Assembly: GCA_965218705.1 (NCBI GenBank)
Contig: OZ244652.1
Location: forward strand, 192,327 to 256,326
Direction of reading: 5' to 3'
Length of the DNA stretch: 64,000 nt
Source: Chthoniobacterales bacterium
GTDB lineage: Bacteria; Verrucomicrobiota; Verrucomicrobiia; Chthoniobacterales; UBA10450
Shown: positions 277 to 63,822 of the stretch, one piece after another
Layout of the letters: every line of letters starts with the position of its first letter
Position numbering within the stretch: the first letter of the stretch is position 1
The notes under the pieces: model-generated
Told to the model about the DNA's origin: nothing
Databases searched by the model: none
The model's input: the letters and a program-made list of their open reading frames with translations, nothing else
Position numbers and translations under genes: made by a program

Positions 277-873
277 TTATCGCACCCACCAAGGGGCCGG
301 CGCGTAGCGGCGAGAGTCGTTAGGCGAATATTCTGGGCGCGAGCGCTGTTGCAGGCGCGCTTCTCCCATTTCCCGACCGCGCGGGGTGCGACCAAACACC
401 GTCACCAGCGTTCCCACCTCGACGGCCTTGAAAAAGGCGATCGCCTTTTGCTCCGGCAGGCGCACACAGCCGTGCGACGCAGGATAGCCCGGCAGGTAGC
501 CGGCATGCATGCCGATCGCGTTATCGAACCGCACAAAATAACGCATCGGAGCGGGCACAAATCTCCCGCCGCGCGGCACTTTCATATCGGAATCGGCGTC
601 GGCCACGATGGTGTTGCCGCGCGCATCCTCGATCCGGCCGTAGAGAGTGGAGAAGTGGTTGCGCTCTTTTTCCATGACCCGGAATGAACCGGTGTCCGTG
701 AGATGCCCGTAACGGCCGGAGCAGATCGGGGTGGAGAGAACGGCGCGGCCGTTTCGGATGAGATAGGCTTTCTGATCCCGCAGGTCGATCTCGATCGAGG
801 TCAAGGGCGTCCCGGCAAAAACCGAAGCGGCGGTCAAGACCGCGACAAAAGGAAGGAAAGAAGCGCGCAGCAT
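277..873 (-). CDS. L,D-transpeptidase (YkuD fold), secreted
   Basis: 198-aa ORF with a hydrophobic N-terminal signal-like segment and the catalytic ASHGCVRLP (His-Gly-Cys) motif of YkuD-type L,D-transpeptidases. Confidence 0.85.
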   Translation of the reverse strand: MLRASFLPFVAVLTAASVFAGTPLTSIEIDLRDQKAYLIRNGRAVLSTPICSGRYGHLTDTGSFRVMEKERNHFSTLYGRIEDARGNTIVADADSDMKVPRGGRFVPAPMRYFVRFDNAIGMHAGYLPGYPASHGCVRLPEQKAIAFFKAVEVGTLVTVFGRTPRGREMGEARLQQRSRPEYSPNDSRRYAPAPWWVR

Positions 874-965
874 AAAGAAACAAAATTAGCCGAAACTCGT
901 GAAGCATCTCTTCGACGGGGCGGAGAGCGAAGATATTCAGAATTGCGGCGCGGCGGCTGACCGCG

Positions 966-1354
966 CTAGGGCGGTTTAGGTGAAACGGGTAGGGTGGGCG
1001 TCTCGCCCGCCGGCAAAGGCATCTTGCCTTTGCGAACTTTTATCCCGCTGCGCACTCAAAAAAAGATTGTTTCGGCAAGGTATTTGTTTAGCGCCGAGCT
1101 CGCGCCTAAAGCTGAGCGAAGGAGGCGAGGCGCTGGAGGGACGACCGCCGTGTCGTCCGGGTGTGATGAAACACGGACGGGACAGCGCCCGTCCCTCCAA
1201 AAGGAGCCAATGACGCTAAACAGCTACTCGGCAAGATGCCGCCGTAACGCAGGGCGGGAGCCCGAGGCCGGGCTTTAAAACCGGCGGGCGAGACGCCCAC
1301 CCTACCCGAGGGTTCCCGCCCGCGCGGCTATGACTTTTTTTAAACCGCCCTAAC
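966..1354. repeat. Non-coding element (~390 bp) bounded by inverted repeats, MITE/REP-cluster-like
   Basis: tagggcggttta (967-978) pairs with taaaccgcccta (1341-1352). gggtagggtgggcgtctcgcccgccgg (988-1014) pairs with its reverse complement at 1280-1306. An inner hairpin unit, ctggagggacg...cgtccctccaa (1133-1200), recurs at 32918-33005. Confidence 0.7.
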
Positions 1355-1356
1355 TC

Positions 1357-1821
1357 TCAGCTGCGAGCCGGAGGGGTTGTGGCTACGAGCAGCCCGGCGA
1401 GGAAAATAGTCACGGCGGCGGAGAACAGGCAATAGCGGCAGTATTGGTGCAGGACAAATGTCTGCAGGTAGATAAACCAAAGGCTGGCGAGAAACATGAG
1501 GGTGACCGTAAGATTAAGAAGCAGGCGGGCGCGCCTGCCACCAAAAGCAGCGAAGACTGCGCTGCTAAAAACGGTGAAATAAGCGAGCAGCCCGAGCCCC
1601 GCGACGGGGATCGGGCCGAGATGAGAGTATTTGCTCGAGAGAACCTGCGAGCAACTAGCCGAGCCGCCACAGATGGCGGCCTGCCCGGTGAGATCGAGGA
1701 CGGTGAGGTAAAGAGCGTCGGCTACTCCGAGAAGGGCGAGGAAAGCAGCCAGCGAATAAACGATGGTGCTCGCGTCTGGCCGGGAGGAGGCAAGGGCTGG
1801 TTGTTTTTGTCGCCGCGCCAT
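1357..1821 (-). CDS. Vitamin K epoxide reductase (VKOR) family membrane protein
   Basis: 154 aa, about 4 TM segments, a loop Cys pair (CGGSASC), an SKYS motif and a CRYC (CxxC) motif in the last TM. The 4-nt overlap with the upstream DsbA-like gene suggests coupling. Confidence 0.8.
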   Translation of the reverse strand: MARRQKQPALASSRPDASTIVYSLAAFLALLGVADALYLTVLDLTGQAAICGGSASCSQVLSSKYSHLGPIPVAGLGLLAYFTVFSSAVFAAFGGRRARLLLNLTVTLMFLASLWFIYLQTFVLHQYCRYCLFSAAVTIFLAGLLVATTPPARS

Positions 1822-2486
1822 TATGGTTGTGCCGGGATTTCGGCCAGCGCAGCCTCAACCGCGGTGCGCACGCCGGCCTTGCCCAGCGCGCGGCCGGTCA
1901 AAGATTTGCCATTGACGAAAATCGTCGGCGTCACCGTGACCCCGAGTTTGGCGGCCCGGTTTTGGTCCGACGCGAGGCGCTCTTTCACTTCCGTGCTGTG
2001 CATGGCCTGACGAAACTTTTCCGGATCGAGCCCGAGGGTTTTGGCATATCCGACAAATAATCCAGCCGGCGCCGCTGCTTTGCTCCAGACTTCCTGTTGC
2101 CGATAGAGCAGGTCGTGCATCTCCCAGAAGCGATTCTGCAAACCCGCCGCTTCGGCGGCTTGGGCGGCGGGCCGGGCGTTAGGATGGATGGAGAGGGGGT
2201 AATGGCGGAAGATAATTTTCACTTTGCCCGCAAAATCGTGCTCAATCTGATTCAGCGGCTCCGACAACTGGCCACAGGGCGGGCATTGGAAATCGCCGAA
2301 CTCCTCGATCGTAATCGGCGCCCGGGCCGCGCCGCGCATATGCGCCAAGGAGGGATTGCCGGGCTCCGTCGCGCCCGAGGTCGCCGTCAGTGACGGAGCT
2401 TTCATCGCCTGGTAAAGAACCACCCCCACGGCCGTCGTGATGAGACCAACGGTGGCGACGATCAGGAGCGGCAGCCAGCGTTTCAT
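1821..2486 (-). CDS. DsbA-family thiol:disulfide oxidoreductase (thioredoxin fold)
   Basis: 221 aa with an N-terminal TM/signal segment and a CPPC active-site motif (FGDFQCPPCG). Sits next to VKOR. Confidence 0.85.
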   Translation of the reverse strand: MKRWLPLLIVATVGLITTAVGVVLYQAMKAPSLTATSGATEPGNPSLAHMRGAARAPITIEEFGDFQCPPCGQLSEPLNQIEHDFAGKVKIIFRHYPLSIHPNARPAAQAAEAAGLQNRFWEMHDLLYRQQEVWSKAAAPAGLFVGYAKTLGLDPEKFRQAMHSTEVKERLASDQNRAAKLGVTVTPTIFVNGKSLTGRALGKAGVRTAVEAALAEIPAQP

Positions 2487-2599
2487 GGGCCAATTAAGTA
2501 GACGGAAGTGCTGTCGCCTTCAAGGCTCAGGTTTTTTTGATCGGACGGATCGTCCCGCCCGATTTGCCAAGGGGAGTCAGGCGCTGCAATCTCTCCACC

Positions 2600-3383: not shown

Positions 3384-6300
3384 CTAAGGCAGGGCCGTGC
3401 CGGATTTGGATTTCACCAAGCCGATGTCAGCGCTGTTGAGCGTCCCGTCGACGGTCACGTCGTTGCGGAAGTTTCCGCTGTCCACTACCTGGCCAGATCG
3501 CGATTTAGTCTGGCCGATATCGGCTGAATTGACCGAGCCATCGATCGTAGTGTCGCCGAGAAGCACATCCATCGGGGCGGCCAGCGCACCGAGAGTGGTA
3601 CCTCCGGCAATCGCCCCATTAAGGGTCACGATGACGTGCTCCGCGTTTGGTATCCCGGAGAGGGTGACAATGACCTGGGTCGGATCGCTCCCGTCCACCG
3701 CCGCAGTCCCGCTCCCCGAGGGCGAGACACTGACTGTGCCGGCATTAGTGACGGTCGCGCCGAGACTGTAGACCAAGGTATGCGTGCCGCCCCGCGGTTC
3801 GACCGCCGCCGTGACGGCAGACGGCAGACTTCCGCCTTTTCGGCGCTTTCCACCGCCCCGACTGGGTGCGGGCGGCGGAGGCTGAGGAACCAGCGTGATA
3901 TCGAAAACGCCCGCCGAGCCATGAGTCCGACGAGAGACGACAGTGAACAATCCACAGGCGGTGTTGTTATCCACCACGGTATAGCCTCCGGCGAAGGCCA
4001 GACTGTCTGGCGCCTGATCGTAGAGCGCTGTCGCAGCGACGCCGACTCCCACTGGGTCCGTGGTCTGCGACGTAGCCGACAGGAAACCGGTGATGACGCT
4101 TCCAACCGGCAAATCCAAATCGCTTGCCTTCACGATAATGGTGATGGTCCCGGAAGGTCCATCGTAGTTGCTGCCAGGTTCGGCTGGTTTCTCCGAGCCG
4201 GACTCGACAAAACGTCCATCAACTCCACCCGAATTGTTCGGGCTCGGAGTGTATGACTCAAACGTTTCGTTGGGCTTATAGGCCATCCGAACAGCGCGAT
4301 AATAAACCGTCTCCACCGCCGTGGTGGTCGGATCGTCGCCGTTAATCTTCATCGCGACATAGGCAGCGAATCCTGGTGCTTCCGTGTCGGTCGCGTTGGG
4401 ATCGGTCTTGATCGTAAAGACCAAGCGCGGAACGCCATCGTTTTGATACGGCTGCGCCAGTTGGATGGTGGCCAGGTCGGCTCCCGGAGGGGCTGGGGTC
4501 GTAACGATGCCTAGAGCGGAGCTGGTATCGCCGAGAGGATCGACCAAAAGAGTGACCCCGGGAACATCGCAGGGGCTCGCCACCGGCGGCGGGATAACGA
4601 TCTGGAGGTCGATCTCATTACTGAGCGGACCTTCACCTTGACCATTCACGGCCAAGACCCGGTAGAAGAGATCAGGATCGTTCGGCGGATTCTGATCTCG
4701 GTAGTTGGTGCTCGCATCAGCAGTCTGGCCGATGAAGACTTCATTGCCAGCCGTGTTACTGCGATAAATTTTGTAAAAGATGATGTCCGCCCCCCCGTTA
4801 TCGGGTGCTCTCCAATTCAGAATGACCTCGGAAGGACTGCGGGTGCCGGAGAGGCACGGTGGCTTGGGCAGGACCGGTTCGGCTGGATTTGGGTCGAATT
4901 GGCTGAAGAGCGGTTTGCCCCCGAACTGCCGCGCGACCCGCATGAAGGCGGTGTAGTCGTTAGGCGCGGTGCCATTGACGCAGCCGTCACTAGTGCAACC
5001 ATCGCTGTAGCCGTAAAGAACCCGACCTTTGGCATCGACCGTGATTTCATTAAAATCGAGCAAGTTGCGATCGCGTTCGCCGCCGCCTTTCTGCCAGATG
5101 CCGGTCATTTTCTGAATCGGATCGTTGGGCGTGGCATTGACGGTGACCCAAGTGCGGCCTTCATCGTAGGTGGTAGCGATAAACGAGTACCAATTGCCGG
5201 AGAAATCCTCCGCTTCATAATCACCGGGTTTATTCGTCCCGAAGAACCCGCAAGCGGCGCGACCCGAGGTGCCGCCGATGGCTTCGGGATGAGCGGCATT
5301 GATGATTCCGTGGCCGATGCCGACATCGACGTCACGAATCCAGTTGATCTTCGTGGGATCAGTCAGGTCGTTTCTTTTGCCGACCGCTACGTGCACGTGG
5401 CCTTCATTTCCGTTGGCCTCGTTATTGACATAGCAGAAGTAGGCAGTGCTGTCGGAGTCGAGCGCGATCGAAGGATCGGCGCCATCGGCTTGCGGAGTCG
5501 TGGTGAACGGCTGTCCGTTGATGTCATTCGTCCCACTGACCGAAAATTCCGTCCATATTGTCGTGCTTGCATCCAAGGTGATCGCGCCGCCTTGTTTGTC
5601 AGTGCAGGACTTATCGGGCAACCAGGCGGTTCCATCAGGAGCCACGCGGACGTGGCCATGCAAGCCACCGCAACCTTGGGAATTGTTTGCACCCGGTCCG
5701 GTCGCGACTACGCCGGGTCCGTAAAGACTGCCCAGGGTATCGCTTCGTTGGCAGTTGGCTCCCAGCAGATCTTGGGAGCAATAGAGGACATATTGGCCTT
5801 GATTGAGAGGTGTGGTGAGACTCGCCAAGGATGCGGGATATGGTCCGGTTCCAATCGTCTGATGGTCCGCTCCGTCCACGGGCGCTGCGCTGACTGGATT
5901 CCAGAACTCGCCATCGTCGTCAGTGTAGGCGTAGATACCAGAGGCGCCCTGAGTCGAGTTTGAGGCGAAGGTCCGCCCTGTAACTTGATCAGTAAAAAGG
6001 ATCGGATCGAGCCCAGTGTCCGTGACAGTGGAGGAACGATCCTGCCAGAGAGCCTCACAACATTCGGGCTGTGCGGGAGTCAGATTCTCCGGAGTGGTCA
6101 GGCGCCAGATCGGACCGAAATTCATGGTCATGATATGGCCAGTAGCCGGATTGAAGCCGATGTTGAACTCGCCGCTGCTGGCCTGTGCTGAGGTGCCGGC
6201 AGGCGCATAAAAGTTTTGATATCGGGGATTGCCCGGGACGGTCGGATCTGCATCACCGAAAGGAGGTGGCGGCGTCCCACCACCACCGCCGCCGTCGGCA

Positions 6301-6902: not shown

Positions 6903-7276
6903 AATTGGGAGTCTGTTTGTTAGATCAGGTTAAAGCAGCAGCGTTTTTACGGGATTATCTGCAGAAGATCGCGCAGTTAAGCGAAGTCGGCCGTAAAATT
7001 CAAGGCTTTTCAAAAAAGATTACAGAAAAGTTAGTTTCTGACGTGCGGTTTATCCCGACGCTTTCTTTCTCCGCCGGGCCGGTCCGAAGAGGTGCGTGCC
7101 CAGATGAAAAATTCTTCGAGTAGCGAAACCATCCAGGATCGATTTGTAGGGGAATATTGCTCGGAACCTAAAGCGCTGAGCTGAGTAAGGCCAAGGTTCA
7201 CCGCGGAGGACGCAGAGCACCCCGACAGATGTTGGTATCGTGCTTGTGCTCGAATCTGCAGGGGATTGAGCAAGAT

Positions 7277-7350
7277 CAGGAGCAGGAGCAGGAGCAGGAG
7301 TTAGTGAGAGTCCTAAAACCTCTGCGATCTCTGCGTCCTCTGCGGTAAAT
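7277..7350. repeat. REP-like elements: (CAGGAG)4 tract plus a CTCTGCG-type unit
   Basis: caggagcaggagcaggagcaggag at 7277-7300. aaaacctctgcgatctctgcgtcctctgcggtaaat at 7315-7350 is related to 8171-8208 and 13714-13737. Confidence 0.7.
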
Positions 7351-7376
7351 CAGCCCGGCGAGATCGCAGCTGCGAG

Positions 7377-7972
7377 CTATCGCACCCACCAAGGCGCCGG
7401 GTAGGAGGCGCGCGGGTCATTAGGCGGGAACGCCGGACGTTGCCGTTGTAAGCGTGCTTCGCCCAATTCCCGTCCGCGCGGCGTGCGGCCAAACGCCGTG
7501 ACTGGCGTACCGACCGCGACGGCATTGAAGATGGCGATCGCCTTCTGCTCCGGCAGCCGGACGCAGCCATGCGAAGCCGATAGCCAGGCAGGTAGCCGGC
7601 GTGCATGCCGATCGCGTTATTGAAGCGCACGAAATAACGCATCGGCGCGGGGACAAAGCGGCCGCCGCGCGGAACCTTCATGTCGGAATCCGCGTCGGCC
7701 ACAACCGTGTTGCCGCGCGCGTCCTCGATCCGGCCATAGAGGGTCGAGAAATGATTGCGTTCCTTTTCCATGACCTGGAAAGACCCCGTCGCAGTAAGAT
7801 GACCATAGCGGCCTGAAGAAATGGGAGTCGAAAGAACGGCGCGTCCGTTGCGAATGAGATAAGCTTTTTGTTCCTGGAGATCGATCTCGATTGAAGTCGG
7901 AGGAGTTTGAGCGAGAGCCGCGGTCACCAGCGCCGCCGAGGCGAGAAGGAAGAGAAACGCTTGCGCCATCAT
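7377..7972 (-). pseudogene. L,D-transpeptidase paralog with a 1-nt frameshift just before the catalytic HGC motif
   Basis: The N-terminal 130 aa align with the 277-873 product. At about 7579 one base is missing relative to that copy (GGCTATC-GGCTTCGCATGGCTGC). Restoring it gives GYPASHGCVRLPEQK... open to a stop at 7377, the same relative end as the paralog. Confidence 0.75.
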
Positions 7973-8090
7973 AAAAACCGAAATCTTTTTGACGCTTGGA
8001 GCAAGAAAATATTCGGCCGGCGAACAATGACCGCAGAGAGCGCAGACGACTGTAGAGAATCCCGGGCGGAGCGTTGTCGTCCTTATGCGC

Positions 8091-8208
8091 GTAGCCGGGG
8101 GACAGCGTCCTCGGCTACAGTCGCACGAGCACGAGCAGGATCGCGAACCCTGCTGCAAATATGACGATCTCCAACCTCTGCGATCTCGGCGCCCTCTGCG
8201 GTAAAATT
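8091..8208. repeat. Composite REP cluster
   Basis: A gtagccgggggacagcgtcctcggctac hairpin and a (GAGCAC/GAGCAG) tract are followed by ccaacctctgcgatctcggcgccctctgcggtaaaatt (8171-8208), in the same orientation as 7315-7350. Confidence 0.65.
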
Positions 8209-8299
8209 CTGGGACCGCCAGCGGATGACGGTCGCTTGACGTTGGGTGCACAACTCCGGGGCGCGCTCGGCCGGGGAGAGGGTCCCCGCTACAACGCTC

Positions 8300-9094
8300 T
8301 TAGACCGCGATCGGGGCTCTGATCGCGGGATGCGGGTCGTAGCCGGTGAGAGTAAAATCTTCGAACCGGAAGTCGTGGATATCGCGAATGGCCGGATTCA
8401 GCTCCATGCGTGGAAGTGGACGCGGCTCGCGCCTCAGCTGTTCGCGGGCCTGGTCGAGATGGTTTCGGTAGAGATGGAGATCGCCAAAGGTATGGACGAA
8501 ATCGCCGCTCGTTAGGCCACAGACCTGCGCGACCATCCGAGTGAGGAGCGCATAGCTGGCGATATTAAAGGGGACGCCCAGAAAGAGATCGGCGCTACGC
8601 TGGTAAAGCTGGCAACTGAGCGCGCCATCCTGTACGTGGAACTGGAAAAGCGCGTGGCAAGGGGGCAGGGCCATGGCATCGACTTCTGCCGGGTTCCAGG
8701 CGGTGACCATGAGGCGGCGGCTATTCGGGTTGGTCTTGATCTGTTCGATCACGCGCTCGATCTGGTCGATGTGTTCATCGTTAGGCCCGCGCCAGTCCCG
8801 CCATTGCGCGCCATAAACGCGGCCGAGGTTGCCCGCTTCGTCCGCCCATTCATTCCAGATCGTGACCCCGCGTTCCTGCAGGTAGCCGACATTGGTGTCC
8901 CCGCGCAGAAACCAAAGCAGCTCGTGAATGATCGATTTGAGATGCAGTTTTTTGGTCGTGAGGAGTGGGAAAGTATGCCGCAAATCGAAGCGCGCCTGTG
9001 CCCCGAAAATCGAAAGCGTGCCGGTGCCGGTGCGATCCTCTTTCGCCTGGCCCTTTTCGAGCACGAGCCGGAGAAGATCCTGGTATGGCTGCAT
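8300..9094 (-). CDS. thyA: Thymidylate synthase
   Basis: 264 aa with the canonical ThyA sequence (MQPYQDLLR..., [15 protein letters not shown]). Confidence 0.97.
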
Positions 9095-9127
9095 ATTACC
9101 GAAATCTCTCGATCCGAATCTTCTGTG

Positions 9128-9820
9128 CTACATGATGCGCCACTTGGGCGTCTTGCCATCAGTCTCGTTCTCCCAAAGCCGCAGACCTCCGGGGTAAACG
9201 TTGCGATTGTGGCCCAGCTCGACGCCCTCGGGCAGTTTCTCGAGCAGGCGCGCGTTTCCGCCCCCTAGGACGACATAATCGGCGATGACGGACATCTTCA
9301 GCTGCTTGATCGCGCGCGTTGTTTCCCGTTGCCAATCCTTCTTGCCCAGTTTCTCCATCCCTTCGTCCCCGAGCCAATCTTCGATAATCCAATCTTCCTG
9401 ATACGGGAGATCGCCCAGTTCGAGGGAAAGGACGTGACCCTTCCAGACTAGCGCGGAACCCAGCCCCGTTCCGAGACCCAGGAAAAGCATGCGCCCATCG
9501 CCGTGATAGCTGCCCAAGGCCTGGAGGGCAGCGTCGTTGATCAGGCGCACCGGTTTGCCGAGGGCCTTGGCGAAGTCGAATCCGGCCCAGTTTTTGCCGA
9601 GATGTTTTGGGTCTTTCGCGATCTTCCCGTCGCGGACGGGCGCGGGGATTCCCAGCGCGATGGCGTCAAAATCCCACTCTTTTGTCTCTTGCTTGATCTC
9701 AGTCACAGCTTCATCCGGGGTTAGCTTGGGACCGGACTTGAACTTGCGCCGCTTTTCCTCGGCGGAAATCATCATTTTAACGTTGGAACCGCCGACATCG
9801 ATGACGAGAATCTTCTTCAT
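9128..9820 (-). CDS. ROK-family sugar kinase, polyphosphate-glucokinase-like
   Basis: 230 aa with an N-terminal VIDVGGSNVK phosphate-1 motif, plus LINDAALQALG and LGLGTGLGSAL motifs. Lies immediately downstream of ppk. Confidence 0.7.
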   Translation of the reverse strand: MKKILVIDVGGSNVKMMISAEEKRRKFKSGPKLTPDEAVTEIKQETKEWDFDAIALGIPAPVRDGKIAKDPKHLGKNWAGFDFAKALGKPVRLINDAALQALGSYHGDGRMLFLGLGTGLGSALVWKGHVLSLELGDLPYQEDWIIEDWLGDEGMEKLGKKDWQRETTRAIKQLKMSVIADYVVLGGGNARLLEKLPEGVELGHNRNVYPGGLRLWENETDGKTPKWRIM

Positions 9821-9951
9821 TTGCGATCGTTAGGGAGATTGATCAATAAAATCGATTCAGAGTTTAACCACGGATTATGCGGATGGCACGGATTGAATGC
9901 CCGGCCCGCCTGATCGCGCCTGCTTTTTATCGGGGGTGAAGTTGGCTTTCG

Positions 9952-12186: not shown

Positions 12187-12323
12187 GGCGTAAGGGCGCC
12201 CGCGGAGGGCGGACGCGCGAGCAGAAGAAAACCTCACCCGCCGCTTCGCGCAAATCCTCGAATTTGACCTAACGAACAACCCGACAATCGGATTCGGTGA
12301 CCCTTCCGGGGTAGACAAGTCCC

Positions 12324-12351
12324 GCTGCCGGGGACAGCGTCCCCCGGCTCC
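12324..12351. repeat. REP unit (GCCGGGGACAGCGTCCCCGGC type)
   Basis: The gctgccggggacagcgtcccccggctcc hairpin is of the same family as 8091-8120 and 18836-18966. Confidence 0.6.
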
Positions 12352-12392
12352 AGGATTGACGCGCGGCGCGCTTCTCGCACACTCTCCTGTCT

Positions 12393-13703: not shown

Positions 13704-13713
13704 GGGCGTTGGA

Positions 13714-13846
13714 TTTAACCGCAGAGGACGCAGAGAAAAGAGGACGAGTTGATGCTTCGTTAGGTCGCTTCTGGAGGGGCCGGCCGATCTCAGCCGGCCT
13801 AACAAATTCTCGTCGCGTTCGTTGCGCTGCGTTCTCTGCGGTTAAT
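13714..13846. repeat. Inverted pair of TTAACCGCAGAG-type REP units between convergent genes
   Basis: tttaaccgcagaggacgcagagaa (13714-13737) faces ttgcgctgcgttctctgcggttaat (13822-13846). The right arm contains the nagA stop codon. Confidence 0.7.
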
Positions 13847-16579: not shown

Positions 16580-16672
16580 CTCGTGCTCCTGCTCGTGATC
16601 GTAATCGAAGCTGAACGGGCTAGGGGAATCTCGAGCAGGAGCACGATTACGAGCAGGAGCAGGAGCAGGAGT
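16580..16672. repeat. Hexamer-periodic palindromic REP element
   Basis: ctcgtgctcctgctcgtgatcgtaatcg ... cgattacgagcaggagcaggagcaggag; imperfect hairpin just after the stop at 16564. Confidence 0.7.
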
Positions 16673-19665: not shown

Positions 19666-19666
19666 A

Positions 19667-21124: not shown

Positions 21125-21142
21125 TGACTCGTCACTCTTTTT

Positions 21143-48690: not shown

Positions 48691-48905
48691 GTTGTCGACG
48701 CTTCGCTCTGCGCAGCGCGGGTGTGAGCGCGATTCCAAACGTGCGTTCGTTGGGCCAAAAGGCGCCGGTAGCGTGGGAGGCCGTCGCCACGCTTAAGAAC
48801 ACAAAAGACGAAATGGGGCCTATCGGGCTGGGGCTTGAGCGATATGCGAAATTCCCTGACCGGACTAACTCACACCCGCGTTCCGCAAAGCGAAAACGTC
48901 TACAT
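48691..48905. repeat. MITE-like element bounded by ~37-bp inverted repeats (TGTAGACG..CGGGTGTGAG family)
   Basis: gttgtcgacgcttcgctctgcgcagcgcgggtgtgagcgc (48691-48730) faces actcacacccgcgttccgcaaagcgaaaacgtctaca (48868-48904). Same family as 59668-59802. Confidence 0.7.
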
Positions 48906-48934
48906 GCTTGGAGGCGGCGGATGAACTGCCGCAG

Positions 48935-53891: not shown

Positions 53892-54896
53892 ATGGGGGGA
53901 CAAACACGATCGGGCCATCCTCAAGATCGCGCAGCGGACTTCCGCCGTGAACTGATCCGATGGTATCGCTGCGAGGGCCGCGACCTGCCTTGGAGACGCA
54001 CGGGCGATCCCTACGCGATCCTGGTTTCGGAGTTCATGCTCCAGCAAACGCAGGTGGCGACCGTCATACCTTATTACCAGCGTTGGCTGGAACGGTTTCC
54101 CGACTTTGCCACCCTGGCCCAAGCCGAGGAGTCCGATGTTTTGCACGCCTGGCAGGGACTGGGCTACTACAGTCGTGCTCGTAATATCCAGGCGGCGGCG
54201 AGGATGGTGCAGGAGGTGTTCGACGGAGAACTTCCCGCGGATGCCGTCAAGATCGCGCAATTGCCCGGGGTCGGTCGATATACGGCGGGTGCGATCGCCA
54301 GTTTTGGATTCGATTTACCCGAGCCGATCGTCGACGCCAACATCGCACGCGTTTTGGCTCGCCTGACGAATTGGCGGCAGCCGATCGATTCCTCCGCCGG
54401 GCAAAAGCAGCTCTGGCGGACCGCGGCGGCGCTCGTTCCGCCCAAAGGAGCGCGCTCCTTTAATTCCGCCCTCATGGATCTCGGCGCGACCATCTGCCTG
54501 CCCCACCGGCCGCGTTGTCTCGAATGTCCGGTGCGCGATTTCTGCCAGGCCGCCGACCCGGCGACGCTCCCTGTGAAACGAAAGAAGCCGGCTACGATTC
54601 ATCTCACGGAATGCCATGCTTTCGCCCGCCGTCGGGGCCGGCTCCTGCTTGAACAATCAAATAGCCGTTGGCAGGGAATGTGGATTCTACCTCGGCTCGC
54701 GACTCAACCGGCGCGATCAGCCATCTTGCGCCTCGATTTTCCGTTTACCCACCATCGCATCACCCTGGTTGTCTTCCCGGGCGACGACGTTCGGCCCGGC
54801 GAGCGCCAACGCTGGTTCCCGGTGCGCGCGATCGACGATCTGCCTGTCCCCTCTCCCCATCGACGCGCGCTGGCGCAGCTCCTGCCTAACGACTAG
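53892..54896 (+). CDS. mutY: A/G-specific adenine DNA glycosylase
   Basis: LPWR...PY.ILVSEFMLQQTQV, GLGYYSRARN, an Fe-S Cys cluster (CLPHRPRCLECPVRDFC) and a C-terminal NUDIX-like domain. Confidence 0.92.
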   Translation: MGGQTRSGHPQDRAADFRRELIRWYRCEGRDLPWRRTGDPYAILVSEFMLQQTQVATVIPYYQRWLERFPDFATLAQAEESDVLHAWQGLGYYSRARNIQAAARMVQEVFDGELPADAVKIAQLPGVGRYTAGAIASFGFDLPEPIVDANIARVLARLTNWRQPIDSSAGQKQLWRTAAALVPPKGARSFNSALMDLGATICLPHRPRCLECPVRDFCQAADPATLPVKRKKPATIHLTECHAFARRRGRLLLEQSNSRWQGMWILPRLATQPARSAILRLDFPFTHHRITLVVFPGDDVRPGERQRWFPVRAIDDLPVPSPHRRALAQLLPND

Positions 54897-57249: not shown

Positions 57250-59667
57250 GTGCGAGCCGTCGACGCGACCTCTAATGTCTTGGACGTGGCTAAACGAAAG
57301 GTAAAACCAACCCGCGGGTCAGATTGGCGGCAAGCCCCGGCCACAACAGGTAGAAAGCGTTCGTTTGAGCGCAGCTGGAAGGTTCCTGCGATTTATCTGG
57401 AATTAGTGGCGCTTACCTGGTTTGTGTTTGGCCGGACAGTTGGCTTTGGATTTTTTAATTACGACGACAGCTTCTATGTCTATCAAAATCACTACGTCAG
57501 CGATGGTTTGACGCGGGCTGGTTTCGTTAGGGCCTTTACGGACCCCTTGGTGGGAAACTGGCACCCCCTGACTTCTCTGTCTCTTATGCTTGATGCCCAG
57601 CTCTATGGGCTCAACCCTGGCGGGTATCACTTCGGAAACGTTTTATTTCATACCATCGCGGTCCTTCTGCTCTTCTTCGTTTTGCGAGCGATGACTGGTG
57701 CAATCTGGCGTAGCGCTATGGTGGCGGCCCTTTTCGCTATTCATCCTTTACGGGCAGAATCCGTGGTTTGGATTTCCGAACGCAAGGATGTGCTGAGCGC
57801 GGTTTTCTTCCTTCTGGGAGTAGGCGCTTATGGTCGATACTGCCGAAAGCCCGGCTGGACACGGTATCTGGTAGTTCTTGTCACGCTCACCCTGTGCCTC
57901 ATGTCCAAGGCGATGCTGGTAACCTTCCCGTTCCTGCTCCTGGTTTTAGATTACTGGCCCTTAAATCGTTTCTCTTTTTCACCGCGTCATAGCAGTGACG
58001 ACGAAGGGCAACCAAGGCGGACCGTGGGCCGGCTGGTGGCAGAAAAACTTCCACTACTTCTGCCGGTGATTGGCATTTCCCTGGCTACGCTCTGGGCACA
58101 GGGGCCGGCGATCGACGCCGCGCACAATTGGCCTCTCAGTTGGCGAGTTAGTAACGCTTTAGTCACTGTTTGGGTCTATCTCCGCCAAATGGTGTGGCCA
58201 AATCACCTGGCGGTGTTCTACCCGCATCCGCATGGAAGTCTGCCGCTCTGGCTGGTCGCGCTGGCCTTTCTCGCGCTCCTGGCGGTGTCGCTGGGAGCTT
58301 TCCTCTGGCGCCGGCGCTTTCCCTATCTGGTGACCGGATGGCTTTGGTACCTCGGGATGCTGGTGCCGGTGATCGGTTTGTTACAGGTCGGCTGGCAGGC
58401 GCACGCCGATCGCTACACTTATCTGCCGCTAATTGGAATCTATCTCGTAATCGTGTGGGGGGTCGCCGATCTGACCGCAGGTTGGCGCCGGCGTGGTGAG
58501 CTGCTGGTTGGATCGTCCGTCCTTGTGATCGTGACGCTCATGACTCTCTCCTGGCGGCAGGTTGGTTACTGGTCAGATACGGTCCGCCTTTGGTCGCATG
58601 CCCTGGCGGTCACGGAAAATAACGATGTGGCAGAGCGTGGGATCGGGACCGCTTTGTTAAGCCTGGGTCATGTCGACGAGGCGATCGCGCACGATCGTAA
58701 GGCCCTTCGCATCCGGCCCGGGGACGCCAATGCTTTGACCAATCTCGCCAACGCGCTCCTGCGCAAGAACGATTATCCCGAGGCCATCGAGTATTATCGC
58801 ACCGTTCTGAAGGCTCGGCCTAACGATGCCGAGATGCATCGCAACCTCGGGAAAGCGCTCTACCAAAGTGGCGCCGCGGATGAGGCCATGACTCAATTTC
58901 GCGAAGTCCTCAGGATTCACCCGACGGACTCCGATGCCGCCTACAGCTTGGGTAACGCCATGCTGGAGAAGGGTGAGGCGGAGGCCGCGATTCCTCATTT
59001 TCGTAAGGCAATCGCATCCGATCCCAAGAATATCGCAGCGCATTACAACCTTGGGATTGCGTTGCAGCGCATCGATCAGTTGGAAGAGGCCATGGCTGAG
59101 TTTCGGCAAACCCTGCAGCTCGATCCCAGGCATGTCGACGCCCATAATAATCTGGCCATCGCGCTGCTCAAGAAAGGCGAGTCGGCCGCGGCCATCGCAG
59201 AATGGCAAGCCGCCTTGCGGATCGAACCAGCCAACGCCGAGATGCATAATAATCTGGGCGTGGCGCTGCTGCGGGAGGGAAGAGCCGCTGAAGGCCTGCG
59301 GCAATGGCGCGAGACCTTGCGCCTGCAGCCCGGCAAACTGGGGACGCGCCTTAGCTTGAGCTGGATTCTTGCCACGGCGCCGGACGCTGGCGTCCGTGAT
59401 GGTCGGGCGGCGCTCGAATTTGCGCGCCAGGCTTTGCGCGCGGGCGCGGAGCCCAACCTGATGGCTTTTCGTGTGCTAGCCGCTGCGTCGGCTGAGACAG
59501 CGCAATTTCAAAATGCGATCAAAATCGCCACGGAAGGCGCGGAACGCGCCGAAGCGCAGGGAGCGTCGTCCTTGAACAATCTCCTGCAAGGCGATCTCGA
59601 GCTTTATCGGCAGAACATAGCGCTACGCGATCCGACCTACGGCGGGGTGGTCGTGGCCGCGCCCTAA
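57250..59667 (+). CDS. Membrane protein with a GT-C/TMTC-like N-terminal domain and C-terminal TPR repeats
   Basis: 805 aa with FNYDDSFYVYQNHYV after TM1, about 10 TM, then about 9 TPR units. GTG start. Confidence 0.75.
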   Translation: MRAVDATSNVLDVAKRKVKPTRGSDWRQAPATTGRKRSFERSWKVPAIYLELVALTWFVFGRTVGFGFFNYDDSFYVYQNHYVSDGLTRAGFVRAFTDPLVGNWHPLTSLSLMLDAQLYGLNPGGYHFGNVLFHTIAVLLLFFVLRAMTGAIWRSAMVAALFAIHPLRAESVVWISERKDVLSAVFFLLGVGAYGRYCRKPGWTRYLVVLVTLTLCLMSKAMLVTFPFLLLVLDYWPLNRFSFSPRHSSDDEGQPRRTVGRLVAEKLPLLLPVIGISLATLWAQGPAIDAAHNWPLSWRVSNALVTVWVYLRQMVWPNHLAVFYPHPHGSLPLWLVALAFLALLAVSLGAFLWRRRFPYLVTGWLWYLGMLVPVIGLLQVGWQAHADRYTYLPLIGIYLVIVWGVADLTAGWRRRGELLVGSSVLVIVTLMTLSWRQVGYWSDTVRLWSHALAVTENNDVAERGIGTALLSLGHVDEAIAHDRKALRIRPGDANALTNLANALLRKNDYPEAIEYYRTVLKARPNDAEMHRNLGKALYQSGAADEAMTQFREVLRIHPTDSDAAYSLGNAMLEKGEAEAAIPHFRKAIASDPKNIAAHYNLGIALQRIDQLEEAMAEFRQTLQLDPRHVDAHNNLAIALLKKGESAAAIAEWQAALRIEPANAEMHNNLGVALLREGRAAEGLRQWRETLRLQPGKLGTRLSLSWILATAPDAGVRDGRAALEFARQALRAGAEPNLMAFRVLAAASAETAQFQNAIKIATEGAERAEAQGASSLNNLLQGDLELYRQNIALRDPTYGGVVVAAP

Positions 59668-59802
59668 ATGTAGACGTTTCGCTCTGCGAAACGCGGGTGT
59701 GAGTCCGGCCATGGGAAGTGATCTTGCGGCATCGCTCACGCCCGCGTCTTCCAGAGGAAGACGTTTACAAGCATCACCCGCGCGCGAACGAACGTGAGTC
59801 GG
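59668..59802. repeat. REP/MITE-like inverted repeats (TGTAGACG..CGGGTGTGAG family)
   Basis: atgtagacgtttcgctctgcgaaacgcgggtgtgagtc (59668-59705) faces gctcacgcccgcgtcttccagaggaagacgtttaca (59734-59769). Confidence 0.7.
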
Positions 59803-59871: not shown

Positions 59872-60747
59872 ATGAGAAGCATGACCGGCTACGGACGCGG
59901 CGAGAGCGATCGCGACGGTGCGAAAATCAGCGTCGAAATCAACTCGGTGAATCGCAAGCAGAGCGACGTCGTCGTCAATCTGCCGCGAGAACTGAGCGCC
60001 CTGGAGCCGCGTGTTCGCCAGATCGTGAGCGAGCGAGTCGCGCGTGGACGCACCAACGTGGTGGTGTCTTATGACCCAGCCGCGCAAAACGCGCGGACCC
60101 TCGCCCTCGACACGGCGCTGGCCCGTTCTTACCACGACAACATGCGCGCGTTACAGAAGGAACTCGGAGTGGCGGGGGAGATTACCATCGGCATGATTTT
60201 GCAGGCTCCCGGCGTGATGCATTTTGCCGAGGACGGGCTTGCCCCTAACGATGCCTGGCCCGCTTTGCAGGAAGCTCTCAACCGGGCGCTCGAGGAATTG
60301 ATCAAGATGCGAGGCCGCGAGGGGAAACATCTGGCCAAAGATTTGATCGGCCGCCTCAAACTCCTGCGCAAAGCCCTTAAGGAGATCGGTAAACTGCACC
60401 CCGCCATGGCGGAGAAATATCGGGCCAGCCTGCTCGATCGCATTCACAAGGCTGGCCTCGAACTTGCCCCTAACGACGATCGCCTGATCAAGGAAGTCGC
60501 TTTTTTTGCCGATCGCTCCGATGTCTCGGAAGAGATCACCCGGCTGGAAAGTCATCTCTCGCAATTTGCGCATCACCTGCGCGGGGAAGAGCCGGTCGGG
60601 CGCACGCTCGAATTTATTACCCAGGAAATTTCACGGGAACTGAATACGCTAGGCGCGAAAGCTGGCGATGCGGAAATTTCGCGTCACGTCGTAGCCTGCA
60701 AGTCGGAGGTCGAGAAGATCCGCGAACAAATTCAAAATCTTGAATAA
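59872..60747 (+). CDS. yicC: YicC-family stress-induced protein
   Basis: MRSMTGYGRGE N-terminus and a C-terminal EEITRLESH...EFITQEISRELNT. Confidence 0.92.
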   Translation: MRSMTGYGRGESDRDGAKISVEINSVNRKQSDVVVNLPRELSALEPRVRQIVSERVARGRTNVVVSYDPAAQNARTLALDTALARSYHDNMRALQKELGVAGEITIGMILQAPGVMHFAEDGLAPNDAWPALQEALNRALEELIKMRGREGKHLAKDLIGRLKLLRKALKEIGKLHPAMAEKYRASLLDRIHKAGLELAPNDDRLIKEVAFFADRSDVSEEITRLESHLSQFAHHLRGEEPVGRTLEFITQEISRELNTLGAKAGDAEISRHVVACKSEVEKIREQIQNLE

Positions 60748-61530: not shown

Positions 61531-62100
61531 ATGAGTTCGAAAAAACAACAGAACGTCGTTCTCGGAGTGACTGGCTCGATTGCCGCCTACAAAGCCGCGG
61601 AATTAACCAGCCTCCTCGTCAAACAAGGGCACGATGTCCACGTCGTCATGACGAAGGACGCGATCGAATTCATCACGCCCCTCACCTTACAAACGCTCTC
61701 CAAGAATGCGGTCACGACCAGTTTCTACGACGAGAAAGAGAGCTGGCATCCGGGCCACATCGCGCTGGCCGATCGCGCGAATCTCCTCCTCATCGCGCCC
61801 GCCACCGCGCACATCATCGCAGAGCTCGCGCAAGGGCTGGCCGGTCATCCCCTGGCCGCCATCGCGCTGGCCACTCGCGCGCCCATCTTACTGGCGCCAG
61901 CGATGAACGGGAAGATGTGGGAACATCCCGCCACGCAGGACAATGTGGCGACGTTAGGCACGCGTGGGGTCGAGTTCATCGGGCCCGAAGCCGGTTTGCT
62001 GGCCTGCGGCTACGAAGGTCTCGGCCGCCTCTGGAAAGTCGACGAGATCGCTTTCCGCGCGGAGTTTCTGCTCGCCCGCCAGGAAAATTTGATGACGTGA
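61531..62100 (+). CDS. coaC: Phosphopantothenoylcysteine decarboxylase (flavoprotein)
   Basis: VVLGVTGSIAAYKA and PAMN motifs; 189 aa. The stop overlaps the GTG of coaB. Confidence 0.88.
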   Translation: MSSKKQQNVVLGVTGSIAAYKAAELTSLLVKQGHDVHVVMTKDAIEFITPLTLQTLSKNAVTTSFYDEKESWHPGHIALADRANLLLIAPATAHIIAELAQGLAGHPLAAIALATRAPILLAPAMNGKMWEHPATQDNVATLGTRGVEFIGPEAGLLACGYEGLGRLWKVDEIAFRAEFLLARQENLMT

Positions 62101-62750
62101 AATTCGTCGTCACGGCCGGTCCCACCCGCGAGCCGCTCGACCCGGTCCGCTACCTGAGTAACCGCTCGTCGGGCAAAATGGGCTACGCCATCGCGGCGGC
62201 CGCCCTGGCCGCGGGCCACCACGCGACGCTCATCTCCGGGCCGGTCGCCTTGACCGCGCCGCCCGACGCCGAGTTGGTCCAGGTGACGACGAGCGACGAG
62301 ATGTTCGCCGCCGCCGCGTCGCATTTTAGGAACTGCGACGTCTTCGTCATGTGCGCAGCGGTTTGCGATTACAAACCGGTTGAGTATGCGCCGCAGAAAG
62401 TGCCCAAGCAGCGCGATCGATTTTCCCTCGCCTTGGAGCCGACGCGCGATCTGCTCGCTAGCCTAACGAGTGCTCCGCATGATTGTTTCGTGGTCGGCTT
62501 CGCCGCCGAAACCCAGGCTCTGCCCGAGAACGCGCGCCGTAAATTGAAGGAGAAAAATTGCGACCTGCTCGTGGCTAACGACGTTAGCCGAAGTGACGTC
62601 GGGATGGATTCTGACGAAAACGAGGTCGTTATTTTTAGTCGCGACGGTCGCGCGGAGAAGTTGCCGCGCGCGAAAAAAACGGAGCTGGCGCGCAGTTTGC
62701 TTAAAATAATTTTAGTCACGCGCGAAAATTGTTTGACAAAAAAAACATGA
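62097..62750 (+). CDS. coaB: Phosphopantothenate--cysteine ligase
   Basis: VTAGPTREPLDPVRYLSNRSSGKMG and AAVCDY motifs. GTG at 62097; the same frame also stays open upstream. Confidence 0.85.
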   Translation: MKFVVTAGPTREPLDPVRYLSNRSSGKMGYAIAAAALAAGHHATLISGPVALTAPPDAELVQVTTSDEMFAAAASHFRNCDVFVMCAAVCDYKPVEYAPQKVPKQRDRFSLALEPTRDLLASLTSAPHDCFVVGFAAETQALPENARRKLKEKNCDLLVANDVSRSDVGMDSDENEVVIFSRDGRAEKLPRAKKTELARSLLKIILVTRENCLTKKT

Positions 62751-62830
62751 CGATTAGTGACACGATGAAAGTGAAGTTATTCACAAACTGTTCACAGACC
62801 GCTTCTGCGGATTGAAAGGGGGGATTCCCT

Positions 62831-62929
62831 ATGCCAGCAAAGAAGAAAAAGGCTGCCGTCAAGAAAAAGGCACCCGCCAAGAAAAAGATGGCAACTAAGA
62901 AAAAAGCACCGGCCAAGAAAAAGAAATAA
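62831..62929 (+). CDS. Small lysine-rich basic protein (32 aa, histone H1-tail-like)
   Basis: MPAKKKKAAVKKKAPAKKKMATKKKAPAKKKK. A purine-rich aggggg sits about 9 nt upstream of the ATG and a canonical intrinsic terminator follows. Too short for the ORF track. Confidence 0.6.
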   Translation: MPAKKKKAAVKKKAPAKKKMATKKKAPAKKKK

Positions 62930-62987
62930 GGCCGACATCCACAGAAGGGCGGTGACAGAGCCGTTCTTCGTTCAAGTTAACTTTAAC

Positions 62988-63023
62988 CCGGGAGAAGGAT
63001 TCATTCTTCTCCCGGTTTTTTTT
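62988..63023 (+). terminator. Rho-independent terminator
   Basis: ccgggagaag (62988-62997) pairs with cttctcccgg (63006-63015), with an 8-nt loop and then T8 (63016-63023). Confidence 0.85.
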
Positions 63024-63069
63024 GCGAAAAATTTGGCGGCCTCGGTCTGGAATCAGGTAGCTTGGCACT

Positions 63070-63813
63070 GTGACAGACCATCTCAAAGTGGCTCAGGAAG
63101 CGGCCCGCGCGGCGGGTGATTTGCTCCGCATCCATTTCGCGCAACCGCGCGTCGTCAACGAAACGACGGCTCATGACATCAAACTCGAGGTCGATGTCCT
63201 CACCCAGGATCTGATCACGAAGATGCTGCTCGGCCGTTTTCCGGAGCACGCGCTTTACGGAGAGGAAGGAATCGTGGGAGACCAGTCGAGCGCACATCAA
63301 TGGGTGGTCGATCCGCTCGACGGAACGGTCAATTTCTTCTACGGCATTCCCCATTTTTGTGTTTCGATCGCGCTCCGGCTGCACCGAGAGGTCATCGTCG
63401 GAGTCATCTACGATCCCATCCGCGACGAGCTCTGGACCGGCGAGAAAGGGGAAGCGCCTTTGTTGAACGGGAAACCGTTTCGGGTAAGTCCGCGCCGCAC
63501 TTTGGCGGAAGCGGTCGTCTCCATTGGGCTGGCTAAAACGAGCGCGACGATCGAGGCGGGCTTGCCGTTGCTCGAACAAATGGCGCATCGCGTGCGCAAA
63601 TGTCGAATGTTAGGCAGCGCCGCGCTCGATATGGCTTACGTGGCCTGCGGCCGGCTCGACGCTTACATCGAACAGGGCATCAGCGTGTGGGACATCGCGG
63701 CTGGTTGGCTTTTGATCGAGTCCGCCGGCGGTCGCGTGGAAGTGGAGCCGCGCGCGGATATGCCGGATAAATTCCGGATCAAGGCCTCCAACGGCCTGCT
63801 CCAATTACCGTAG
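63070..63813 (+). CDS. suhB: Inositol monophosphatase family protein
   Basis: WVVDPLDGTVNF and WDIAAG motifs; GTG start. Confidence 0.9.
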   Translation: MTDHLKVAQEAARAAGDLLRIHFAQPRVVNETTAHDIKLEVDVLTQDLITKMLLGRFPEHALYGEEGIVGDQSSAHQWVVDPLDGTVNFFYGIPHFCVSIALRLHREVIVGVIYDPIRDELWTGEKGEAPLLNGKPFRVSPRRTLAEAVVSIGLAKTSATIEAGLPLLEQMAHRVRKCRMLGSAALDMAYVACGRLDAYIEQGISVWDIAAGWLLIESAGGRVEVEPRADMPDKFRIKASNGLLQLP

Positions 63814-63822
63814 CCTAACGAA

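Follow-up and report, generated by a model that had tools for sequence, protein, structure and literature searches.

Short words that recur in a genome far beyond expectation are rare, the known cases being the uptake sequences of two proteobacterial families (the relatives of Neisseria and of Haemophilus) and the highly iterated palindrome HIP1 (GCGATCGC) of cyanobacteria. A late-2025 preprint (bioRxiv 10.1101/2025.10.24.684340), from which we took the criteria for this class, recognises as uptake sequences the DNA uptake sequences (DUS) of Neisseriaceae and the uptake signal sequences (USS) of Pasteurellaceae, and places about half of their copies in transcriptional terminators, often as inverted pairs. 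The abundance of HIP1 has been reported only in cyanobacteria (PMC5861425). Molecular drive, selection for conspecific DNA and repair have each been put forward as their origin, in a debate that still goes on after decades. Here, we describe a word of this kind, the 8-mer CCTAACGA (complement, TCGTTAGG), which is usually preceded by G as the 9-mer GCCTAACGA, in a 64-kb stretch of DNA from a Chthoniobacterales bacterium of the phylum Verrucomicrobiota (contig OZ244652.1, positions 192,327 to 256,326; hereafter, the window).

The window contains 45 exact copies of the 8-mer, 20 on the forward and 25 on the reverse strand, a density of 0.70 per kb or about one per 1.4 kb. A dinucleotide-preserving shuffle yielded 1.03 copies with a maximum of 4, and Markov models of orders 0 to 3 yielded 1.0 to 1.7; these values agree with the one to two copies expected by the original prediction, which had been made from the letters of this stretch and whose 45 copies, with their 20:25 split, were all recovered where it had placed them. 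Among all 8-mers of the window CCTAACGA ranks first, despite being AT-rich for a sequence of 60% GC. The base at -1 is G in 33 of the 45 copies (73%, where three quarters had been predicted) and in 87 of 106 when relatives are pooled. The resulting 9-mer occurs 33 times against 0.39 expected, and the excess over chance is about 45-fold for the 8-base core and about 85-fold for the 9-mer. Flanking information is close to zero outside positions -1 to +8; besides the G at -1, A is weakly avoided at -4 and -3. Sites with one mismatch number 52, among them all 15 that had been listed, against about 34 expected. In 127 kb of pooled clade DNA, where counts are inflated by shared orthologous sites, there are 87 copies of the 9-mer against 0.74 expected and 70 one-off 9-mers of all kinds against 26 (about 2.7-fold); the most enriched single variant, CCTAACAA, has small counts (6 versus 0.28 expected). 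We regard the hyper-abundance of the word as confirmed, and as real and robust.

It might be argued that there is no discrete element here, and that the count reflects composition, codon usage, a favoured peptide, an error of assembly or pieces of some longer mobile repeat. P-N-[DE] is indeed the commonest reading, accounting for 16 of 38 coding copies, and Markov models of high order seem to explain the count, the expectation climbing to 6.6 and 27 copies at orders 4 and 5 and the maximal-order model also approaching the observed number. We dropped the latter explanation as circular because the sub-words that feed these models are mostly motif copies (45 of the 65 occurrences of CCTAAC). When synonymous codons were shuffled gene by gene, so that every protein and each gene's codon usage were preserved, 3.0 ± 1.7 copies (maximum, 8) remained in place of the 38 observed in coding sequence, and the enrichment claimed for the window therefore holds against a codon-aware null as well as against the lower-order Markov models. 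Rare codons are drawn into the word (18% of all AGG, 8% of CTA and 6% of TTA), which is read in four frames and on two strands and is present in non-coding DNA; together with the shuffle, these results rule out a codon, peptide or compositional artefact. The original prediction had also held that the flanks are unrelated and that no larger repeat is involved, and this stands: there is no information beyond -1, no longer family containing the word among the repeats of the window and no Rfam family overlapping it there, which rules out a longer dispersed repeat or a known RNA. Moreover, the word recurs in independent metagenome-assembled genomes (MAGs) and metagenome contigs, which come from different studies and pipelines as judged by their names. 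To an artefact of any of these kinds we give practically no credence.

Genes were modelled from codon-position GC content and then corrected with Pfam. The window carries an ordinary housekeeping mix, comprising two YkuD transpeptidases, VKOR, DsbA, ThyA, Ppk1, a phospholipase D (PLD)-family enzyme, an amidohydrolase, LpxD, GcvP, two sensor kinases, MatE, PhzF, MFS and ABC transporters, RNase HII, MutY, YicC, Gmk, CoaBC and an inositol monophosphatase; the predicted identities of ThyA, Ppk1, GcvP, LpxD, the amidohydrolase, YicC and the ABC and MFS proteins were borne out. Coding sequence makes up 88% of the window and wholly contains 38 of the 45 copies (about 84%), the other 7 being non-coding or at an edge; the density is 0.67 per kb in coding and 0.92 per kb in non-coding DNA. 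The 38 coding copies are read as P-N-[DE] in 16 cases, x-L-T-x in 5, antisense S-L-G in 4 and antisense x-V-R in 13, and all four stop-free frames are thus occupied. The count of five for L-T had been predicted; those of the other three readings (17, 6 and 11, respectively) shifted with the Pfam-checked model. The sense stop frame (GCC TAA CGA) appears only as a genuine stop codon, in three open reading frames (ORFs) rather than the two genes originally counted: the PhzF-family gene (copy 27905-27912, plus strand; TAA at 27907-27909), the MFS transporter gene (44479-44486, plus; TAA at 44481-44483) and ORF 48908-49924 (49920-49927, plus; TAA at 49922-49924), where the word falls within the tail of a hairpin that resembles a terminator and separates convergent genes. 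The antisense stop frame had been said to be absent from intact coding sequence, and its single copy, at 25333, is in a broken glycerate kinase gene. The predicted occurrence irrespective of frame and orientation, at roughly 0.7 per kb, was likewise confirmed.

The nearest GcvP relatives of the window, among contigs representing one genome per species, are soil MAGs with 81-86% identity, and the GcvP relatives assign the window to the order Chthoniobacterales of the Verrucomicrobiota. We scanned each locus for its most over-represented 8-mer, without bias toward any word. In the four closest loci (L001 to L004), the top word was CCTAACGA, with 7.4 to 13.5 copies per 10 kb, and over the five in-group genomes (the window and these four) the range is 7 to 13.5 per 10 kb. 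The scan recovered HIP1 in cyanobacterial loci as a positive control and found no comparable word in more distant Verrucomicrobia or in other phyla. In a neighbour-joining tree of GcvP the five in-group genomes form one clade, which is sister to a large Udaeobacter-like group; among the loci scanned, the word is hyper-abundant only in this monophyletic clade, and beyond the sister group it is absent. The sister group (L005 to L028, L030 and L035; 377 kb pooled) shows a weak enrichment, with 20 copies of GCCTAACGA against 1.3 expected, and the copies examined are at differing positions. This weak signal may be what is left of an ancestral system in decay, or may reflect a drive of lesser strength or gene flow out of the motif-bearing clade. 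A metagenome scan for pairs of the motif in opposite orientation returned 120 contigs, of which about 25 to 37 are motif-rich in both orientations; these have a GC content of 0.53 to 0.67 and come from soil and, in addition, one microbial mat. After removal of the seeding pairs, 19 such contigs (128 kb) hold 90 further copies, or 0.71 per kb, with orientations of 48:42 and a G at -1 in 76%. The density, the parity of orientations and the preference at -1 amount to an independent replication of the pattern in the window. A scan of viral contigs yielded no motif-rich phage, only same-orientation tandem or chance pairs.

Neighbouring lineages carry different hyper-abundant words, GCCTAACGA in the clade of the window and AAGATCGACA in a subclade of the sister group. 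The 22.8 kb of L006 (1-22823; GcvP 74% identical to that of the window) hold 19 copies of (A)AGATCGAC(A), where 1.65 would be expected; these copies have either orientation, fall in several frames and also in DNA without an open frame, and their flanks are unrelated. The sister word, which contains GATC, is concentrated in the L005 to L008 subclade and is also found in L017, L026 and L028. It was assessed by within-locus counts only, because a pooled k-mer scan is inflated by conserved GcvP codons, which recur once per locus; some top words of the pooled sister tier, such as ATGTACATCC, were rejected as codons of this type and not a dispersed word. There is an apparent replacement of the word in the sister clade.

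How the copies arise can be seen in gcvP, which we aligned across 15 genomes, 5 of them in-group, at an overall nucleotide divergence of about 20-25%. Each motif column is occupied in 3 to 5 of the 5 in-group genomes, while the out-groups have related or unrelated codons there and no indels. The window has three copies in this gene, all on the minus strand and in sense. The copy at 29782-29789 (P-N-D) is in the same column in 5 of 5 in-group genomes, and the out-groups read P-[A/G/R]-[D/E]; the copy at 31223-31230 (R-L-T-T) is common to L001, L003 and L004, with out-group codons of the R-L-D-R type; and that at 31315-31322 (P-N-D) is common to L001, L002 and L004, with CCG AAC GAx in the out-groups. 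Origins can thus be synonymous (CCG AAC GAx to CCT AAC GAx) or amino-acid-changing (P-[A/G/R]-[D/E] to P-N-D; R-L-D-R to R-L-T-x), and lineage-specific gains and losses are also present. Copies arise by substitution, both synonymous and amino-acid-changing, and not by insertion, as had been proposed; the lack of indels in these columns rules out an insertion footprint. GcvP residues encoded by the motif are less conserved among out-groups than other residues (0.69 versus 0.80, p=0.013; one protein), and motif copies sit at permissive protein positions.

Once present, the copies are retained. Conservation was measured following Xu, Lawrence and Durand (PMC5861425), over all pairwise aligned blocks of the five genomes, at about 76% identity. 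A motif site is kept exactly in the partner genome in 62% of cases; the corresponding figure is 17% for all remaining 8-mers and 18% for those matched in GC content. As a local control, mean identity is 0.85 over the eight motif positions and 0.735 over the 24 nt flanking them on either side, and it falls to 0.56 at +1; the flanks show a 3-base coding periodicity that is absent within the motif. This higher identity and the loss of periodicity indicate that synonymous positions inside the motif are held at the DNA level. Where a genome has a one-off variant, a relative has the perfect copy at the aligned position in 17 of 50 cases (34%).

Positional conservation, together with the local control, is also what would be anticipated if the word were the site of an abundant sequence-specific chromosomal protein, nucleoid-associated or chromosome-organising, and were kept by selection for a genome-wide structural role; the same argument has been made for HIP1 (PMC5861425), and the over-representation is of HIP1-like magnitude. 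Such a protein could be lineage specific, as is the word, and would account for sites in coding and non-coding DNA irrespective of frame and strand; the absence of a terminator association fits it better than it fits DUS or USS. However, the sites of known nucleoid proteins are degenerate; the word is invariant at eight positions, and its one-off variants show an enrichment of only about 2.7-fold. A structural role would not obviously need about 0.7 exact sites per kb at a cost in amino acids and rare codons, the spacing of the sites is random and no candidate protein has been identified. We consider this explanation doubtful, but the main competitor.

Another explanation is a neutral mutational ratchet, in which a clade-specific methyltransferase or other modification enzyme recognises the word, and strand-directed or very-short-patch-type repair favours it, with no function of its own; this is reportedly the model of Elhai for HIP1. 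The origin of copies by substitution and their restoration or retention at orthologous positions are compatible with a ratchet, and so is the sister word AAGATCGACA, with its GATC, a classic site of methylation and of repair direction. The top variant CCTAACAA is what would arise, on the complementary strand, from a C-to-T transition of the CpG cytosine, and methylation of this base would be expected to produce such a change, although counts are small. On the other hand, the word is non-palindromic and lacks GATC, and the specific HIP1 model is therefore not transferable. We know of no methyltransferase with the specificity of this word, and none that could be cognate is evident in the window, where the S-adenosylmethionine (SAM) methyltransferase at 18931-19665 matches only generic domains of the small-molecule type. 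A ratchet on a 9-bp site would also have to be very strong to beat selection on proteins, and Xu et al. took such conservation of HIP1 as an argument against pure neutral replenishment (PMC5861425). On balance, we think a ratchet unlikely.

Orientation of the copies in the window is unrelated to gene strand (Fisher p=0.35) but does change with position, minus copies tending to lie on the left and plus copies on the right (Mann-Whitney p=0.003; 14 minus and 3 plus in the left 25 kb, 12 plus and 5 minus in the right 23 kb). This trend, and the likeness of a non-palindromic octamer to Chi and to the FtsK-orienting polar sequences (KOPS), would be in keeping with a polar recombination or segregation signal, of the type of Chi, KOPS or the architecture-imparting sequences (AIMS), read in one orientation by RecBCD/AddAB or FtsK. 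The other loci do not replicate the trend. Orientations are 8:9, 11:11 and 9:8 in L001, L003 and L004, which have uniform GC skew, and the 196 sites in 24 loci are split between the locally G-rich (94) and C-rich (102) strands; the window itself has neither a GC-skew switch nor a cluster of DnaA boxes. Density and fold-enrichment are also about 5-10 times those generally known for Chi in Escherichia coli. The Chi-like recombination hotspot that the original prediction had offered as an alternative is disfavoured by this lack of strand polarity, and we rejected a replication-polar signal, which is already largely refuted and in our estimate very improbable.

Taken together, the signature shows a sequence-specific process at the DNA level: the word is created by substitution where the gene product allows it and, once there, is preserved. 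The process treats the two strands alike, whatever the direction of transcription or replication, and is confined to one clade. The known process with exactly these results is the molecular drive, accompanied or not by selection, that goes with DNA uptake specificity in Neisseriaceae and Pasteurellaceae. Our best reading, which we hold tentatively and by analogy with DUS and USS, is a drive on the DNA itself with receptor-mediated DNA uptake as its agent. Under this model, GCCTAACGA would be a clade-specific 'self' word, written by point substitution wherever the encoded protein or the spacer can accommodate it. A surface receptor belonging to the natural-transformation machinery would prefer double-stranded DNA with the word, and conspecific fragments that carry it would be taken up and recombined more often than fragments that do not. 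Alleles that gain the word would then spread and alleles that lose it be replaced, by molecular drive and possibly by selection for conspecific DNA in addition. The halo of one-off variants (70 versus 26), of which 34% are aligned to perfect copies, is as expected of a balance between drive and decay, and the restriction to one clade, with a different word in the sister, parallels the lineage-specific words of uptake systems. The reader of the word is, we infer, a DNA-uptake receptor, and the bacteria would be naturally transformable. L161, a soil contig in which the motif is weakly present, has a cluster of type IV filament genes (7333-14056) that encodes three pseudopilins with N-terminal methylation signals, a 962-aa protein to which Pfam assigns no domain and, in divergent orientation, an MshEN-domain protein. 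The cluster, which may represent a pilus or else a type II secretion system, provides weak and generic evidence for uptake.

Several observations weigh against uptake as the agent. The spacing of copies in the window is random (coefficient of variation, 1.00), whereas uptake sequences are more even than random. An unbiased sample of 106 sites contains no inverted pair within 100 nt; inverted pairs in metagenome contigs do form hairpins with 9-bp stems and no T-run, about 60% of them where no frame is open, but that scan itself selected for such pairs. At most 2 of 41 copies touch terminator-like sites (1-60 kb scanned, with a terminator scan barely above its shuffled background), and the predominance of copies in coding sequence, with little link to terminators, is not what DUS and USS show. 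The original prediction of an uptake-sequence likeness is thus upheld in part, for most of its statistical and evolutionary signature; the tie of DUS and USS to terminators and inverted pairs is lacking here, as is an even spacing. No competence or pilus genes, be it for a receptor pilin or for ComEA, ComEC, DprA or PilQ, were found in the window with Pfam, and no report of natural transformation in Verrucomicrobia was found in the literature searched. Direct selection on a chromosomal function would explain the conservation at orthologous positions just as well, an argument already made for HIP1 (PMC5861425), the GATC of the sister word is reminiscent of the methylation-linked HIP1 and, in the window, orientation changes with position. 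We do not file the word as a member of DUS/USS because it lacks the link to terminators and inverted pairs, because its spacing is not even and because uptake itself is proposed by analogy. Somewhat doubtfully, we suggest that it may mark an independently evolved uptake-sequence system, the first outside the Proteobacteria, in uncultured soil Chthoniobacterales whose neighbouring clades use different words. The remaining probability we assign to mechanisms so far unimagined.

Full-text literature searches found no description of the word, or of any uptake-like or HIP-like motif in Verrucomicrobia, in agreement with the original statement that no such element was known. A hyper-abundant short word in a new phylum, with the distinctive anatomy of intragenic copies away from terminators, appears undescribed. 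This third unrelated case, in another phylum, with a sister clade using another word and with several MAGs and contigs available, would be a natural replicate on which models of such words can be tested. Soil Verrucomicrobia are a dominant yet nearly uncultured group, and the word would be the first hint that they transform naturally in a sequence-specific manner or mark their DNA genome-wide by some new system. If uptake is the agent, self-preferential natural transformation shapes the genomes of a dominant group of soil bacteria, and sister lineages can come to differ in uptake specificity by its complete replacement. In practice, the word is a sharp signature of the clade, of use in binning and in detecting foreign DNA in these genomes, and, if uptake is true, it would be a handle for genetic manipulation.

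The individual copies are spread over most of the window (strand of the word in parentheses). In its left part, sense copies are read as P-N-D in a YkuD L,D-transpeptidase gene at 317-324 (-) and in a large fn3-domain protein gene at 4957-4964 (-), and thyA has two, G-L-T-S at 8509-8516 (-) and P-N-D at 8778-8785 (-). An intergenic copy at 9827-9834 (-), between the ppk1 stop and the start of a ROK-family gene, is followed within ppk1 by sense P-N-D at 11282-11289 (-) and 12116-12123 (-) and antisense F-V-R at 12268-12275 (+). The copy at 13757-13764 (-) separates the convergent PLD-family and amidohydrolase genes, and the latter, NagA-like gene has antisense copies at 14019-14026 (+; L-V-R) and 14658-14665 (+; V-V-R). 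A flavin adenine dinucleotide (FAD)-dependent halogenase-like gene is crossed in antisense at 15461-15468 (-; S-L-G) and at 16230-16237 (-; L-V-R), the second copy lying within a weak 5-bp hairpin. The copy at 17776-17783 (-) is between lipid A acyltransferase and polysaccharide deacetylase genes, and that at 18003-18010 (-) is antisense in the deacetylase gene (F-V-R).

The longest motif-free stretch follows, at 18011-25052. It may be acquired DNA, but at 7 kb the gap is statistically ordinary (P=0.21), and its reading as a foreign island was rejected for this reason; the stretch holds the SAM methyltransferase, several hypothetical ORFs, a tRNA-Thr (23845-23917) and a circularly permuted ATP-grasp/Alpha-E operon of lower GC (0.54-0.56). 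Beyond it is the glycerate kinase gene (24491-25583), which is in two frames owing to the loss of 5 nt compared with its intact orthologues in L001 and L003; right at the break in frame, beside this deletion, is the lineage-specific copy at 25333-25340 (+), which is S-L-G in the upstream frame and whose antisense TAG is an in-frame stop directly upstream of the C-terminal ORF. The split gene may be a real pseudogene or an assembly error. Its C-terminal fragment contains two sense copies 28 nt apart, P-N-D at 25053-25060 (-) and A-L-T-N at 25081-25088 (-).

To the right of this gene, the MatE gene has an antisense copy (F-V-R) close to its 5' end, at 25749-25756 (-), and the PhzF-family gene has sense P-N-D at 27211-27218 (+) and P-N-E at 27493-27500 (+). 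In lpxD a sense copy at 35077-35084 (+; S-L-T-I) is 268 nt from an antisense one at 35345-35352 (-; S-L-G), a spacing kept in L001, L003 and L004. Sense P-N-E is encoded in an M28 peptidase gene at 37096-37103 (-) and in a PDZ-domain protein gene at 42912-42919 (+). Antisense copies lie in the hypothetical gene 40852-41598(-) at 41212-41219 (+; F-V-R), in the MFS transporter gene at 43750-43757 (-; I-V-R) and 44233-44240 (-; V-V-R), in the hypothetical gene 45420-46418(-) at 45828-45835 (+; L-V-R), in an ABC transporter ATPase gene at 47267-47274 (-; L-V-R), in an ABC-2 permease gene at 48372-48379 (-; S-L-G) and in the hypothetical gene 49950-50870(-) at 50808-50815 (+; L-V-R). The 3' end of mutY encodes sense P-N-D at 54885-54892 (+). 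TPR protein genes have antisense F-V-R at 57524-57531 (-) and sense P-N-D at 58819-58826 (+), yicC has sense P-N-D at 60244-60251 (+) and 60469-60476 (+) and the CoaB part of coaBC has sense S-L-T-S at 62462-62469 (+). The last copy, at 63814-63821 (+), is non-coding and begins directly after the TAG stop of the inositol monophosphatase gene. Among the genome-maintenance genes of the window, mutY has 1 copy, RNase HII 0, thyA 2 and gmk 0, a sample far too small for any conclusion.

Other features of the window were noted. The YkuD L,D-transpeptidase paralogues at 277-873 and 7313-8251 are about 82% identical across about 500 nt, and the exact motif at 317 in one is matched at 7417 in the other by the one-off TCATTAGG, which shows gain or decay of the motif inside a duplicated gene. 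The coaBC gene (61531-62750) is in two frames, CoaC ending at a TGA near 62098 and CoaB running from about 62070, close to a GGAAAATTT run; no motif copy lies at this break, which may be a genuine frameshift or an error of homopolymer sequencing. About 40 nt before the start of the MFS transporter ORF (43110), an inverted repeat of 35 nt with 91% complementarity (42970-43071) has its right arm overlapped by a 21-nt run of C (43027-43047). A repeat of about 35 nt (TGTAGACG.TTCGCTCTGCGAAGCGCGGGTGTGAG), similar to repetitive extragenic palindromic (REP) elements and unrelated to the 9-mer, is present in both orientations, mostly just beyond ORF ends, at 36028-36062, 40679-40713, 48693-48727, 48868-48895 and 59669-59704. 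A second dispersed repeat, which forms hairpins (GGACGGGAC.GCGCCCGTCCCTCC), occupies spacers at 1128-1200, 31480-31552 and 32919-33005, one copy scoring as terminator-like (32923-32944), and short arrays of (GAGCAG)n lie near gene boundaries at 7268-7300, 16633-16671 and 38144-38155.

Some contigs of the metagenome scan differ from the pattern described above. Low-GC termite-gut matches were rejected as in-group members and have no motif copies beyond a hairpin pair. L124, L127, L130, L137, L140 to L142, L149, L169 and others (GC 0.37-0.46) have in common one inverted pair of the 9-mer, whose members are separated by a constant 24 or 12 nt, and otherwise lack the word, and several bear the same sample-ID prefixes; this pair looks like one conserved hairpin element, unrelated to the signal in Verrucomicrobia. 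Two related contigs of 66-67% GC (L178:3330-8595 and L206:281-5450) each contain two inverted GCCTAACGA...TCGTTAGGC pairs about 5.2 kb apart; these are inside ORFs, with few other copies, unlike the dispersed pattern.

How, then, does the word compare with known systems? It shares with REP elements, bacterial interspersed mosaic elements (BIMEs) and miniature inverted-repeat transposable elements (MITEs) the presence of many dispersed copies of one sequence. These elements, however, exceed 20 nt, are usually palindromic and intergenic and spread by transposition or insertion, whereas the word is 8-9 nt long, has unrelated flanks, is mostly intragenic and arises by substitution without a change in length. 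Chi, KOPS and AIMS are likewise non-palindromic 8-mers over-represented chromosome-wide, genes included, but they are strongly co-oriented with replication; the word, at 94:102, is not, and it is about 5-10 times denser. HIP1 is closer, being a hyper-abundant octamer (15- to 300-fold) of coding and non-coding DNA, conserved at orthologous positions beyond background and restricted to one lineage with sublineage variants. HIP1 is, nonetheless, a perfect palindrome around the methylation sites GATC/CGATCG, while GCCTAACGA is asymmetric and has no GATC or known methylation core. HIP1 also has a periodicity of 10-90 kb and cognate orphan methyltransferases that co-occur with it. From USS of Pasteurellaceae (9-mer core, AAGTGCGGT) and DUS of Neisseriaceae (GCCGTCTGAA and dialects), jointly termed DUES, the word differs in having no sequence similarity and in its host, uncultured soil bacteria of the phylum Verrucomicrobiota. 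It also differs in the proportion of copies in coding sequence, about 84% and proportional to coding density, in the near absence of a terminator link and of an excess of inverted pairs, in its random spacing and in a sister clade with an unrelated word, AAGATCGACA, in place of a dialect differing by 1-2 nt. The receptor of DUS/USS is a minor type IV pilin, ComP or ComN; the resemblance seen here is one of sequence statistics. That resemblance is, even so, extensive. Like DUS and USS, for which we compared generally known copy numbers, the word is short and non-palindromic, occurs at roughly 0.7-1 copy per kb and exceeds expectation by tens to hundreds of fold; it has equal orientations and no replication polarity and is found in genes and spacers. 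It avoids stop frames, occupies permissive protein positions, originates by substitution and is conserved between related species, and, as in these systems, a strong core with a weaker 5' extension (here G at -1; AT- in the 12-mer DUS) is accompanied by a halo of one-off variants and by lineage-specific words.

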